Assembly: GCA_964016885.1 (NCBI GenBank)
Contig: OZ024741.1
Span: 325,996,001-326,060,000 of the forward strand
Source: Eledone cirrhosa
Taxonomy: Eukaryota
DNA length: 64,000 nucleotides
Direction of reading: 5' to 3'
The position numbers and the translations under genes are program-made. The notes beneath the pieces were generated by a model. It worked only from the letters and a program-made list of their open reading frames with translations. It was not told where the DNA came from and made no database searches. How positions within the stretch are numbered: position 1 is the first letter of the stretch; each line of letters starts with the position of its first letter. Shown here in pieces: positions 543-60,355 of the stretch.

Positions 543-760
543 TGGTTTCTTATATAGGCACAAGGCCAGCAATTTTGGAGGAGGGGGAAAGTCGATTAAA
601 TCGACCTCAGTGCGTGACTGGTACTTTATTTTATCGACCTCGTAAGGATGAAAGGCAAAGTTAAATTCGGTGGGATTTGAAATCAGATCATAAAGGGCCG
701 TAACTCTATGCTTCAAAGCATGGCATCCGACCCTCTACCGATAATGCCAATCCACCGCCC
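543..760 (-). mobile_element. tRNA-derived SINE (main family of this window)
   Basis: Reverse complement has an A-box-like TGGCATTATCGG, a degenerate B-box, the central GCCTTTCATCCTTACGAGGTCGATAAAATAAAGTACCAG block and the tail GCTGGCCTTGTGCCTATATAAGAAACCATT; more than 10 related copies in the window. Confidence 0.85.
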
Positions 761-1084
761 GAGCCCACCAACAAAAATAATAGCAGCAACTCCCACAACA
801 GCAACAACAACATAACAACAACAATAGCAAAAGTAGCTACAAGAAAAACATCAACGCTGTACGTCCCTATTAGATGAGAATTAAAGAAAGATATTGTCAA
901 GTTGAGGCCTTTTGTTTTCATTTATTTCAAGTAGCATGGCCTGGCATGATATAGTCTCATAACTCTTGAGGGAGTCGTAGGGTCACCGTATTGATATACG
1001 GCGTTTCTAGGGCATTTAAAACCTGGTGAATACAGCAGATTTCTTCCAATGTAGGATAGAGCGAGTGAGGGTTATAAAGGAAGA

Positions 1085-1247
1085 AACCACCCAAGTACTT
1101 GACTGGTACTTTTCTATCGATCTCGAATGGATGAAAGGTAAAGTTAACTTCGGAGGGATTTGAACCCAGAGAGCAGAGAGCTGAAACCAATACCGCAAAG
1201 CAAAGCACTCTATACGACGTTCTAACGACTCTGCTAATTCGTCGCTT
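1085..1247 (-). mobile_element. SINE, partial diverged copy
   Basis: GACTGGTACTTT...GGATGAAAGGTAAAGTTAACTTCGGAGGGATTTGAACCCAG matches the 543-760 family. Confidence 0.7.
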
Positions 1248-1554
1248 ATTATTTCAAGTGGAGTAAGTAGCTAACATGAAATTTGAAAATCTGTGATGGA
1301 AATTGTTGCTGTAGCAGCCGAATATGGCGGCCAACTGTTCCTTAATTCACGGTCTCCTGCATTGAACGTGAAGGTACATTACTTAGTGGTTAGGTTATTC
1401 GGCTCGATCGTAAGTTCATGAGTTCGCCTCCCAGCACACACTTGGTCAACATTAGGTAGCAGTAACACACTGAAGTTGATGTAATGCCTTTGCCCTTCAA
1501 ATTGCTGGCCTTGTGCCAAAAATAGAAGAAATTATTTTAGTAGTTGTTAGTATT

Positions 1555-1765
1555 GTGGATTGGCGGAGTCGTTAGAATGTTGGACAAATGCTTTGTATTA
1601 TTTATTCCGGCTCTTTATGTTCTGGGTTCAAATCACGCCGAGTTGAACTTCTGGCGTCTATAAAATAAAGTACCAGTACTGCACTGAGGTTGATATAATC
1701 GACTTCCCGATTCCCACAAAACTACTGGCCTTGTGCCAATGTTAGATAGAATTATTACTATTGTT
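1555..1765 (+). mobile_element. tRNA-derived SINE copy
   Basis: TGGCGGAGTCGTTAG A-box, GGGTTCAAATC B-box, AAAATAAAGTACCAG block, CTGGCCTTGTGCC tail followed by ATTATT. Confidence 0.75.
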
Positions 1766-56191: not shown

Positions 56192-56436
56192 GTTGTTTTT
56201 TTGTTTAAAATAAATATTGGGCACAAAACCCCAATAAGCAGTTATTTAACCCCGACGGGCCAAATAACGTGCAGAAAGACCCCTCTCACGAGGAGGAGGT
56301 TGTTTTTGTCTACAAGTTGGTTAAAGTTTTAAACAATTTACAATTGTTATAGCCGTCAAAATTTACAATACCTTACAGAGCCGAGCCTCCGTCAACCATA
56401 GCATTCAATAATAATAATAATAATAATAATAATAAT

Positions 56437-59400
56437 GGTTTCTTTATTGGCCACAAGGGCTAACAGGAAAAAAACATTAGAGACGGCACAGAACAGTACA
56501 GGACGATACAAAGTGAGTTTTTGTCGTGTAAACAGGTTACAACAAAAATTCAAATAAAAGGGGGAACCACCGAGGGTCACTCGTGGCGAAAACCACACAA
56601 AAAGACCACGGCCACACTGACCACCAGGGCAAGCGCCCTCTCTCAGTTCTCCCACTCCTTTGTCTCAGGCGCATACTCAGAGCGGGCCCGTTCACTCGGA
56701 CCAGACGCACCACTTTCACCTACCTTTCAACGAACTTACTAGAAGACAGCACTTGCTTCTTCACCCTGATTTTCCTCTTCAAGTGAAACTTGAAAAAGTT
56801 AATCAGGGATTGGCCAAAGAGGAAAGTCTCAGTCTTTAACCCTTTCAACCTTGTCCACCACACAATTTCTTTCGCCATGGCCACCAGGCAGATGAAAACT
56901 GACTGCCCTTCCTCCTCTTTAAAGGAGGGTGACGGGGCTATCTGCACAATGGACTCAGTCGATAACCGGATCCGTACTACACACGCCAGCAGCTATTCGA
57001 CATAGCTCCACAAGTCAGCAATCCTCGGGCACTGAACGAGTGCATACAGGACGGTTTCGTCGCCCTTCGCGCATCTCGGACAGGCTCGGCTGACAGCACC
57101 TCCGTGCCTATAGAGCTTATCCCGAACCGGCAACGCACCCCGATAGCACTGCTAGGCCAGGGATTTCTGGAAGTTGTCCATAGGCCCCGGTATAAAAGTT
57201 CTTTTGAAGAGAGCGAACAGCTGATAGTCTTCGACAACCAGGGTCTCCCCGAGAACGTCGTCGCTCTTCCCTCCACTAGCCCTCTATAGAACGCCGAGGT
57301 GGATATTCCACTGATACTAGTGCCCAGCTGGTAGAGGGTAGTGAGCGCCTGGAGACATTCCAGCTTCCAAGCGTTATCCCTCCGTCTTTTCCTGATCCAG
57401 GACTGCAGCTCCCTCAAGGAGACGAGCTGGGGAAAAGCGCGTCTGGCAAACGCCGACCACACCTGTTCACCGGCAAAGAAGCATCAGAGATGTCGCAGCC
57501 TCAGCGCATGTTTGCACATCATCAGCCACGGCATGCCTAGTCCTCCACGCAACGGATGTTGACAGCAAATGGATTGTCTGACCATGGGAGCACGTCCTTT
57601 CCACAAAAAGCGGAAGAGAAGGTGCTCCATTTTTGTCAGAGTTGGGCGAGGGCAAGGTACGACGGCCAGGCGGTAGTAGATGACGGACGCGATGTACGCA
57701 TTCGCCACCTCCGCCCGACCTTTCAGAGACAGCCTCCTCTCGGCCCATGTCTGGAAGATTGGTGCGAAGGCTCGTGCTTCGGAGATTCTGGTCTCGGTGA
57801 TGGCCATCACATCTATGTTTAGTAACCTGGGGTCGTTGACCAGGTGACTCTGCTTCCAAGATGACCCCAGGCCACGTACATTTATACTGAATATTCTAAG
57901 TACGGCCATGTTGGATGAGAAACGGGGCAAGTGTGAAAGGATCACTTACCTTGATCGTGTTGGGAAGAGACAGTAGAACCGTCACTTTGGCTGGTCATGG
58001 GTGTTTCCAAGATGATGTCAGTGTATTTCCTCTTGGTAAACGACCCTCTGAAGTCTCCAACTGTGTTGGGGATTTTTTCTTTTAAAAGTTTATAAAGATC
58101 TATTTTAATTTCAATGATGTTTATATTCTTCGGGAGAGTTGTTGGTATTGGTGGGGTGTAGTTTTTTTTTCTGTGATGTCTGTGTGTTGCTTTATATGTT
58201 GGAAGAGTTCTTTATTTGCCATGTTTATGGCTGTGTACTTTTTGGGGGGGAGGGGTGGTTTTGTTGCTGTTTTCTTGCTGTTGCTGTTGGGTGTGTGTGT
58301 GCTTTGTTGTGTTTGCGATGTTGGTGTTTTTAGTGATGCTGGTGGTGGTGTGGTTGTTGTTGGCGGTGATGCTTATGGTGGTGATGGTGATGGTGGTGGT
58401 GTTGCTGCAAGTCTCCTTGCAGCCTTTACCTCTCTTTGTTTGCCTTCGCTTTTGGACGGTGAAGCTAAGGGTTGTTTTCTTTTTTTTTTTTTTTGTTGCA
58501 GACCGTTTGTCACTTCCCTCCCGCCTCATACTAAATGTCGGATTCCGTGGCGTCTGGGAGGGGTATGAGCTCCACTACTGTTGGTGGTGGTAGCGAGCCC
58601 GCTCCGGCGATTTTGCCGCCGGTGTAGCTACTGCGACTGTTGGTGCTGCCACCACTGCTGGCGCTGTTTTAGTTGTCCGTAGCCTTGGTATGGGTGCCAC
58701 GGAAGTTGCCCTCCTACTCACCATGGAAGGGTCTTCTGCCTCTGTTGCCTGCCTTGCTCTTGGTAGCAGTGGATCAGACGTCGGAAGGAGGGGACCCTCT
58801 TCTTGGCTGTCTTCTGCTGGCAGAAGGCCCTGAGGTGACCCTTCTGCCCACAGAGATAGCACTTATAGGGAGTTGGAGTCCTTCCTCGAGGTCTATGATA
58901 TCTGGGATGGCTTCGAAGCACTACTGGTCAGTTTGTATTAGCATTTGCATGCCTATTCCTGACCATTTCTCTCTTTCCATTCTCTGTATTTGCAGTATGG
59001 TGGTCTTCTGCTCGATTTCAGCAAATACAGACGAGCCAGCTAAGGTATGGGCACGTCGGGCAGGACCTGGGTCACTTTGAACCTCACAATTTTCTGCCCA
59101 CAGTAGGAGGGCTTCAATACTATCTCCTCACTCTTTAGGGTTTCCAAAGAGTGAGACTTCGCCTCTTGAGGGGTGGCGAAAAGTACGTCTACTGTGGCGT
59201 ACTTTTTGCCTCGGGTGATGTGGGTTTTGCGCACCCTGACGCACGCCAAGGCCTTTTGGATTTGAACCTCCGTGGCTCTCTCCACCCGATGTGACATTTT
59301 GCTTACGGTGTGGTAACTCACCGTGCTCAGCTGCTGATCTTTGAATAAATCGGGTGGAGGTTTCAGGGAAACTCTATTGTCGTTTCTCGACACCATGGCT

Positions 59401-60166
59401 CTTGCGACTGCCATCTCCTCCTCCGTGACTAGCACTGTCTCTATTTTTCGGGCCACACCTGCGAAAGAAGTGGCCCTTTTTTCAGCGGCACCATTATTGC
59501 TGCCGCTATTGCTGCTACTGATCTTGTTGTTGGTGCTGTTGCTGTTGCTACAAACGGTGTTGTTGGTGCTGTTGCTGTTGCTACTGCTACAAACGGTGTT
59601 GTTGGTGTTGTTGCTGTTATCACTGTTGTAGTTGGTTGTCTTTTTGGTGCCACCGTTGTTGTTGTTTTTGGTGCAATTTGTATTGTTGCTGTTGGTGTTG
59701 TCGTTGTTTATTTTCTTGTTAGTGGTGTTAATATCGTTGTTGCATTTTGTTTTCATTTTTTTCTGTTGTCTGTATTTTGGTTGTCGCTGTTATTGTTGTA
59801 GTTGGTGTGGTAATTTTTTTAAATTAGTGTTCACAGTGTTGTTGTCTTTGTTCACGTTGTTTGTGGTGGTGTTTGTTGTATACATTTCTGTGACTCCCCC
59901 TCTCAACTTTTACGCCGTTGTCACACGACAGCAGAGATATTGCTGGGGGGGGGGGGGGCATGTTTTTTATTTTAATTTTTAAAAGTAAAATGTTCAAATA
60001 TTGTTCAAATATTTGGGCCAAAAGGCCCAAATATACTTTCCTCTTCACAGGGCAAAGTCCAAGGGCTTATATCCCTTACACAACAAGAAAAATTAAACAA
60101 CAAATAATTATAACAGGTAAATAAAGCGACTTACTGGGAGCGAGCAAAAAGACGTCCGAACAGACC
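56437..60166 (-). mobile_element. Tx1 LINE family B, internally deleted (most of APE and all of RT missing)
   Basis: ORF1 homolog (SFAGVARKIE..HITRGKKYATVDVLFATPQEA..CYLCGQKGHLRAFC); ORF2 reads ARAFAPIF|QTWAERRLSLKGRAEV; (AAT)n on both sides. Confidence 0.88.
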
Positions 60167-60174
60167 AATAATAA

Positions 60175-60355
60175 TTGTTTCTACTTTTGGCACAAGGCCA
60201 GCAATTACTCAGTGTATTACTGGTACTTTATTTTATCGACTCCGTAAGGATGAAAGGCAAAGTTAACCTCGGCGGGATTTGAACACAGATCATAAAGGGA
60301 CGTAACTCTATGCTTCAAAGCATGGTGTCCGACTCTCTACAGATACTGCCAATCC
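60175..60355 (-). mobile_element. SINE whose (ATT)n tail hosts Tx1 family B
   Basis: Family match; further fragment at ~60380-60432. Confidence 0.9.

Follow-up and report, generated by a model that had tools for sequence, protein, structure and literature searches.

The sequence studied here was a 64,000-nt stretch of Eledone cirrhosa contig OZ024741.1 (the window; all coordinates are window positions), which is animal DNA rich in microsatellites. It carries three Tx1-like long interspersed nuclear elements (LINEs), copies of a short interspersed nuclear element (SINE) and LINEs with a reverse transcriptase (RT) and a restriction-like endonuclease (RLE), all listed in Table 1. In the region from 36.4 to 60.4 kb, these elements formed two chains joined by ATT/AAT arrays, one in the order SINE, LINE A1, RLE-type element and the other in the order SINE, SINE, LINE B, LINE A2, RLE-type element. 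Based on the comparisons described below, the Tx1-like LINEs and the SINE are likely a stringent LINE/SINE pair, in which a minimal 3' hairpin and a common ATTAT nick site would be shared. This kind of partnership, the sharing of a tail by a LINE and a SINE, is itself well known.

Table 1. Repeat elements of the window and their predicted hairpins (ORF, open reading frame; APE, apurinic/apyrimidinic endonuclease; UTR, untranslated region).
Feature	Position	Strand	Remarks
Tx1-like LINE A1	39240..45263	-	6,024 bp, full length; ORF1 and APE-RT-zinc finger ORF2; several stops; ATT arrays on both sides
A1 3' hairpin	39252..39264	-	stem AACC/GGTT around a CTTGT loop; then AATAAA, GAAA and an ATT array (39204-39239)
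Tx1-like LINE A2	50387..56406	-	full length; 96% identity to A1; 3' hairpin 50399-50411 with one broken pair
A2 5' UTR hairpin	56219..56231	-	adjoins the ORF1 start on its upstream side; 4 pairs, loop TTTGT
Tx1-like LINE B	56437..60166	-	internal deletion at ~57754, most of ORF2 gone; 3' hairpin GCC/GGC 56450-56460
SINE, long form	544..759	-	hairpin 556-568; 15-bp flanking duplication beginning ATTAT
Two older tandem SINE copies	1448..1756	+	terminal hairpin in both; CCTTGTG at 1509 and 1729
SINE, short form, 5'-truncated	26760..26878	+	hairpin 26854-26866
SINE, short form	36451..36634	-	
SINE, short form	36650..36826	+	hairpin 36801-36813; 3'-truncated copy next to it, 36845-36973
SINE, short form	45333..45519	-	hairpin TGGC/GCCA 45346-45358; LINE A1 inserted in its ATT tail (45264-45332)
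SINE 3' fragment with hairpin	46390..46441	+	
SINE, short form	60176..60355	-	hairpin 60188-60200; LINE B begins in its three-unit ATT tail
SINE 3' fragment	60371..60432	-	no hairpin, yet ends AGAAACT + ATT
Two 5'-truncated RT + RLE-type LINE copies	36972..39203	+	(AAT)n tails of opposite polarity; no hairpin match
Second RLE-type LINE family	46686..50365	+	(AAT)n tail; array common to it and LINE A2

A sequence-only reading of the window had proposed a LINE/SINE pair from six 3' ends sharing a CCTTGTG-AGAAA motif and an ATT tail. All six ends were found in the window as quoted: the LINE ends at 39240, 50387 and 56437 (minus strand) and the SINE ends at 544 (minus strand) and in the copies 36650-36826 and 26760-26878 (plus strand). 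The spacing claimed for the motif was kept, with a spacer of 8 nt (9 nt in two window copies), and the ATT tail lay on the sense strand in both LINEs and SINEs. Genome-wide, the pattern CCTTGTG-N7-9-AGAAA-N2-3-(ATT)4 gave 31,341 matches versus 0 for the reversed pattern. In random DNA (100 evenly spaced 10-kb genome pieces, 1 Mb in total), we obtained 113 matches to the motif, namely 96 in the SINE, 14 in Tx1-like LINEs, two unassigned and one at an edge; the reversed control gave one. Thus, 110 of the 113 matches were SINE or Tx1, and none lay in another LINE.

To compare tails across LINE clades, the last 26 bases were aligned with the two SINE forms from the end, and p values were obtained from dinucleotide shuffles. 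Six Tx1 ends matched the SINE at 14-18 of the 26 positions (p 0.0005-0.042), versus 6-13 (p ≥ 0.066) for seven non-Tx1 ends, whose clade labels we take from their protein motifs. The shared 3' terminal sequence, although short, was specific to one LINE clade (6/6 Tx1 ends significant, 0/7 others). RTE-type LINEs were rejected as partners, their tails being (GAT)n or TA-rich and without a match; the RTE-type element L157, whose end was not clear, did not enter the comparison.

The most fitting reading of the motif is a predicted RNA hairpin of 3-4 bp with the loop CUUGU, which lies 13-14 nt 5' of the ATT tail in both LINE and SINE. The conserved letters were those of the five-base loop CTTGT (CTRGT in family E), closed by C-G. 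The stems were unlike between the six Tx1-like families and the SINE, with the pairing kept: AACC/GGTT in A, GCC/GGC in B and C, GGCC/GGCY in D, TGCC/GGCA in E and TGGC/GCCW in the SINE. Over 15 real copies, 54 of 60 cells paired and three of the four pairs changed on both sides, with C-G in LINEs versus G-C in SINEs and A-U versus G-C. The covariation score was reached by 0 of 500 shuffles, and slid registers paired at 34-51%. These 15 copies therefore showed a conserved 3' stem-loop with compensatory changes, as is characteristic of a stringent pair. When SINE copies were collected by a central block and not by the motif, the hairpin was kept in 125 of 150 within three mismatches, and the spacer 3' of it varied between subfamilies. 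The hairpin-free fragment 60371-60432, a single copy, may result from a later deletion rather than from a hairpin-free insertion. The hairpin cannot be the target determinant, because Tx1 families ending in (TATC)n share it. One metagenome scan for relatives with DNA context gave 105 pattern matches, none of which was confirmed. Contigs from three sequencing runs yielded only fragments when compared with the LINE-A 3' UTR; in one run, from another organism, the LINE-A hairpin stretch was covered with at most one difference and no new stem variant. No RNA dataset appeared among the sequencing runs listed as holders, which carries no information on expression.

The assignment of the LINEs was addressed through their proteins. 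Among 20 LINE-A loci fetched, the 3' end was readable in 18, ORF2 was open in five, and both ORFs were open in two (L092 and L106). At L106, ORF1 measured 696 aa and ORF2 1139 aa, the latter with PF03372, PF00078 and PF13966 (APE, RT and zinc-finger domains); two ORFs, with APE, RT and a C-terminal zinc finger in ORF2, are the architecture of Tx1-clade LINEs. The closest named relative of the window LINE protein was from Argonauta hians (74% identity over the RT region), and Xenopus Tx1L ORF2 scored 327 bits versus 180 bits for human L1 ORF2p. In a tree of 33 RT regions, the families of this genome formed one clade (100/100) apart from the vertebrate Tx1L group. A 27-row group united them with Tx1L (91/98) and excluded an algal element, CR1, RTE and the RLE type; the tree held no vertebrate L1, and this grouping therefore does not separate Tx1 from L1. 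Taken together, these comparisons indicated that the LINEs are well supported as Tx1-like. ESM atlas and cluster look-ups returned no clade name. At least six Tx1-like 3'-end types were distinguished, with (ATT)n at the ends of A, B and D and (TATC)n at those of C1, C2 and E. Within the lineage, (ATT)n targeting is likely older than (TATC)n targeting, because family D joined the TATC types in the RT tree (99/99). Families C and E (L149, L153, L170, L250, L181-L210) combined the same hairpin with (TATC)n ends, a target switch within one lineage; exact C-type ends numbered 3,995, and one of the 30 read was a B-type ATT copy. Between families A and A' (L307, L314, L315 and L316 compared with L106), ORF2 was 92-97% identical in amino acids and the 3' end was the same, with unrelated 5' UTRs and ORF1 starts. 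Family D also occurred with two different 5' ends (L302, L303), and these differences suggest 5'-module swapping.

The SINE is ~190-215 bp long and non-coding, with a simple-repeat tail, and its exact terminal 27-mer occurred 134,138 times genome-wide. Its length, copy number, simple-repeat tail and target duplication (in about 33-34 of 64 copies) are those of tRNA-type SINEs in general. Words resembling the A and B boxes, according to what we take to be the box consensus, were visible in the short copy 45333-45519. A SINE copy had no match in Rfam at E ≤ 5, and ARAGORN made no tRNA call on any window SINE copy; its sole call (58547-58629), within the ORF1 region of LINE B, was set aside as likely spurious. 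The short form lacks a stretch of ~30 nt that is internal to the long form (a second hairpin and a C-rich tract), and 125 SINE copies comprised 96 short and 29 long ones, of the types 45333-45519 and 544-759, respectively. The window SINE presumably resembles the octopus SINEs OK, OR1 and OR2. These SINEs (Ohshima and Okada 1994) are tRNA-type and are cited as CORE-SINEs (PMC4824008, PMC4758252; here and below, publications are cited from the parts of their text that were available). The available text of both sources assigns them no partner LINE, whereas a Tx1-like LINE is the candidate partner of the window SINE.

Target-site duplications (TSDs) were observed in 33 of the 64 SINE copies with usable flanks, out of 69 full copies (shuffled pairs, mean 1.6), versus 1 of 22 CR1 copies (Fisher p 8e-5). 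The SINE duplications were 10-22 bp long; the upstream copy began with A in 31 of 34, and TTAT occupied positions 2-5 in 33-34 of 34. A pyrimidine (C or T) preceded the duplication in 25 of 34; in the other nine this base was A and mostly belonged to the end of a preceding SINE. Tx1 copies showed duplications in 12 of 41 cases (shuffled mean 5.4, maximum 10), a test that was blunted by the arrays and used a non-random set, thirty Tx1 loci having been chosen for short tails. Defined 5' ends were available for 41 of 120 Tx1 and 22 of 51 CR1 ends; the remaining ones, being too long or internally deleted, were excluded. Among 40 loci examined by eye, short Tx1 copies in non-array DNA (L219, L236, L240, L216) had ATTAT-led duplications of 13-18 bp. 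Duplications of the L1 type measure 7-18 bp (PMC6007223). ATTAT was located 8-24 nt 5' of the 5' junction in 23/64 SINE, 20/41 Tx1 and 2/22 CR1 copies, against a background of 4%. The insertion signatures of SINE and Tx1 thus agreed in the ATTAT start and were similar in duplication length but differed in array preference. Where the sequence-only reading had implied (ATT)n as the target of the SINE, the actual target was the short ATTAT site.

Array preference was confined to the LINE. An ATT run preceded all 30 of the best-matching LINE-A 5' ends, in keeping with the target preferences of Tx1 elements. Genome-wide, (ATT)4 followed 6,758 of 9,552 LINE-A 3' ends (70.7%), versus at most 11,766 of 134,138 SINE ends (8.8%), the latter being an upper bound with a looser numerator pattern. 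In random DNA, (ATT)4 stood at 3 of 97 SINE ends versus 388 of 5,650 background ATTAT sites (6.9%; p 0.16), and among the 30 best-matching SINE copies only the query itself had an (ATT)n array. SINE enrichment in long (ATT)n arrays was therefore not found, the frequency being near background both genome-wide and in random DNA. These results contradicted the earlier claim that the SINE inherited microsatellite targeting; the SINE is not microsatellite-targeted and took over the nick site without the array preference. The best-matching, youngest copies of both SINE and LINE-A were ~1% from the majority sequence, so age is not the cause of the array gap. In less biased sets, the median divergence was 6.6% for the SINE (69 copies) and 3.3% for LINE-A (11 copies). 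The sequence-only interpretation was supported in part, by the grouping of the LINEs with Tx1L, the match of the SINE end to Tx1 ends, the hairpin-like covariation of the motif and the shared ATTAT-led duplication, but not as regards array targeting by the SINE.

Because long (ATT)n arrays harbor the LINEs but not the SINE, the array preference likely depends on some feature missing from the SINE, for which a more extended (AUU)n stretch at the LINE RNA ends is one candidate. At two loci, L105 and L103, the 3' side had three or one ATT units and the 5' side seven or four, with no duplication past the run, a hint that the LINE may bring along part of its flanking array. Alternatively, the array gap may arise because long insertions elsewhere are removed by purifying selection, or the actual partner may be a less strict ATT-type family.

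The shared end motif and the same five-letter site suggested that the SINE likely borrows the Tx1 copying enzyme. We consider it quite probable that the SINE is copied in trans by the RT of ATT-type Tx1-like LINEs, which would recognize the predicted hairpin; the observations behind this are the shared motif, the covarying stem, the ATTAT start, the duplications of 10-22 bp and the overlapping ages. By analogy with L2 elements, the ORF2 protein of the ATT-type Tx1 family would bind the hairpin, its endonuclease would nick the bottom strand at Y/ATTAT, and the freed 3' end would pair with the terminal AUUAU(U) of the RNA and prime reverse transcription. A second-strand cut 10-22 nt downstream would yield the duplication. 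Since all of these duplications begin with ATTAT, an insertion would always recreate the target and could seed tandem arrays, and the recreated targets would explain both the head-to-tail SINE arrays and the SINE-LINE-LINE chains of the window. More tentatively, targeting might have two layers, a Y/ATTAT-nicking endonuclease and the pairing of a long (AUU)n RNA end, which would guide the LINE to microsatellites. A minimal CUUGU handle would then have been retained when the target changed from (ATT)n to (TATC)n, with a second copy in a 5' UTR, and the SINE would copy the handle and the first layer only, which would have allowed it to reach over 130,000 dispersed sites, with its carrier accumulating in arrays.

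Several observations weigh against copying of the SINE by the Tx1-like LINEs. The array preference of the LINE is missing from the SINE, and the LINE-A copies with both ends read (n = 18) showed, by eye, no duplication past the ATT run. The shared sequence is only ~12-18 nt long, local-alignment significance was modest (p 0.003-0.07), and the non-Tx1 tails in the comparison were one CR1-type, three RTE-type and three RLE-type only. The family end sets were gathered with motif-containing patterns, although a motif-free collection gave the same ends. As for the hairpin, folding energies were ordinary (z -1.1 to +0.9), the long-form SINE copy at 544 favored another fold, the outer pair failed in 5 of 15 rows, and the covariation came from about five stem types among related sequences. 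In addition, the SINE does not have the AATAAA found in the LINE.

The hairpin may have been captured from a LINE 3' end, but one Tx1 5' UTR matches as well or better. In the 5' UTR of family A', upstream of ORF1, an 11-mer identical to that of the SINE hairpin was present, including the G-C pair of the SINE type and the CTTGT loop; other Tx1 families kept the stem at this site with other loops (A, B/D and D2 differ). It is conceivable, though rather unlikely, that Tx1 is the partner and that the SINE obtained its hairpin from a Tx1 5' UTR or by mimicry instead. The A' 5' UTR matched the SINE at 20 of 28 aligned positions (score 35, p 0.022), and five of the six Tx1 3' UTRs scored lower (29-32); however, the family E 3' UTR scored higher (39, p 0.002), the 5' UTR loop varies between families, and the distal AGAAA-NC and the spacing to the tail are common to the SINE and the LINE 3' ends.

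An unsampled or extinct LINE (another CR1, L2, RTE or an older Tx1) that nicks ATTAT without array preference seemed improbable as the true partner. Such a LINE would explain the (ATT)4 gap of 71% versus at most 9%, and an octopus annotation lists 13 active CR1 and 13 RTE families (PMC13282606), more than were sampled here. Against it, no motif match in the 1 Mb of random DNA fell within a non-Tx1 LINE, SINE copies 1% from the majority sequence need a recently active partner, and another ATT-type Tx1 would merge with the explanation preferred here.

We regarded it as very unlikely that a young CR1-type LINE, which has an (ATT)n end of the same polarity, mobilizes the SINE and that the Tx1 likeness is due to chance. 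Its copies are ~99% alike, with 2,947 exact ends, and 50 of 51 ends run into ATT. However, its tail was unlike the SINE (10/26, p ~0.5), its one duplication in 22 copies lay within a minisatellite, and no ATTAT excess was detected at its 5' junctions (2/22, p 0.23), so that for this one CR1 family the idea appears largely refuted already. Mobilization of the SINE by the RLE-type elements, which we take to be R4/Dong-like and which occupy the same microsatellite tracts as the Tx1/SINE chains, is barely credible, as their (AAT)n tails have the opposite polarity, their ends do not match (8-11/26, p ≥ 0.3) and reversed SINE transcription would be needed, which the box-like words contradict.

Pairing of a SINE with Tx1-clade machinery has a precedent in crocodilian SINEU and Tx1-Mar, where the partner was likewise assigned through a common target preference and overlapping ages (PMC4494074). 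SINEU elements, however, have small nuclear RNA heads and poly(A) tails, and no LINE with the same 3' terminus as SINEU-1 was found (PMC4494074), whereas the box-bearing SINE described here shares a hairpin and an ATT tail with its candidate partner. The hairpin resembles those of UnaL2/UnaSINE and ZfL2-1/ZfL2-2, each of which has a 3' stem-loop, conserved in its loop but exchangeable in its stem, ahead of a short repeat tail (PMC4176376); in assays of L2 elements, specificity is set by the loop (PMC4176376). Those pairs belong to the L2 clade, have longer stems and are experimentally shown, whereas the Tx1-group pair has a 3-4 bp stem and is a sequence-based candidate. Among L1-group elements, 3' ends are shared by maize ZmSINE2/3 with LINE1-1_ZM and by Chlamydomonas SINEX-3_CR with L1-1_CR (PMC3472496, PMC3747384), and the maize pair also has a hairpin with compensatory changes (PMC3472496). 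These are plant and algal pairs sharing ~50-80 nt with poly(A)/poly(T) ends, whereas the octopod pair shares a shorter stretch and has an ATT tail. Microsatellite-sited Tx1-clade LINEs are likewise represented by Kibi in (TC)n, Koshi in (TTC)n and the crocodilian elements in (TTCC)n/(TTTC)n (PMC4494074), but the present targets are (ATT)n and (TATC)n, and these families form their own clade apart from vertebrate Tx1L.

A published table of 58 LINE/SINE pairs has no Tx1 and no octopus entry (PMC3747384), and no partner LINE for octopus SINEs is named in the available text of PMC4758252, PMC4824008, PMC13282606, PMC8967140, PMC3531059 or PMC5786205. In the open literature, which leaves Repbase, Dfam, SINEBase and subscription papers outside the search, we found no report of this Tx1/SINE pair; it is quite possible that the pair is already annotated. 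In O. vulgaris, SINEs account for 11.6% of the genome (PMC13282606). If the pairing is correct, it would identify a likely carrier for a repeat that ranks among the most abundant in octopod genomes, and it would bring an animal Tx1-group case to bear on whether stringency is ancestral in L1-group elements. Because the handle is very small and compensatory variants of it occur naturally, stem and loop mutants are easy to design. Moreover, the difference between LINE and SINE in the arrays would make it testable whether the endonuclease or RNA-DNA pairing is the seat of microsatellite targeting.

Apart from the LINE/SINE pair, the following was observed. RLE-type LINEs were the 3' neighbor at 8 of 30 LINE-A loci, in the same arrays and in the opposite orientation. 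The young CR1-type family (L317-L346) had a 945-aa open frame in many copies and provided landing sites for LINE-A (L078, L107); its copy L326 was flanked on both sides by a duplication of ~47 bp or longer, perhaps representing a tandem repeat and not a TSD. Tandem and inverted duplications of near-identical sequence (97-99.9%) occur at 19319-20377 with 22339-23338 and at 27510-29080, and an 880-bp dispersed repeat (85%) links 30647-31489 with 61870-62734; all are unrelated to the LINE/SINE pair. Finally, long near-perfect inverted repeats (96-98%) lie among TA-rich tracts at 8430-8775, 11193-12324 and 21606-21745 and are possibly assembly fold-backs or similar to miniature inverted-repeat transposable elements.

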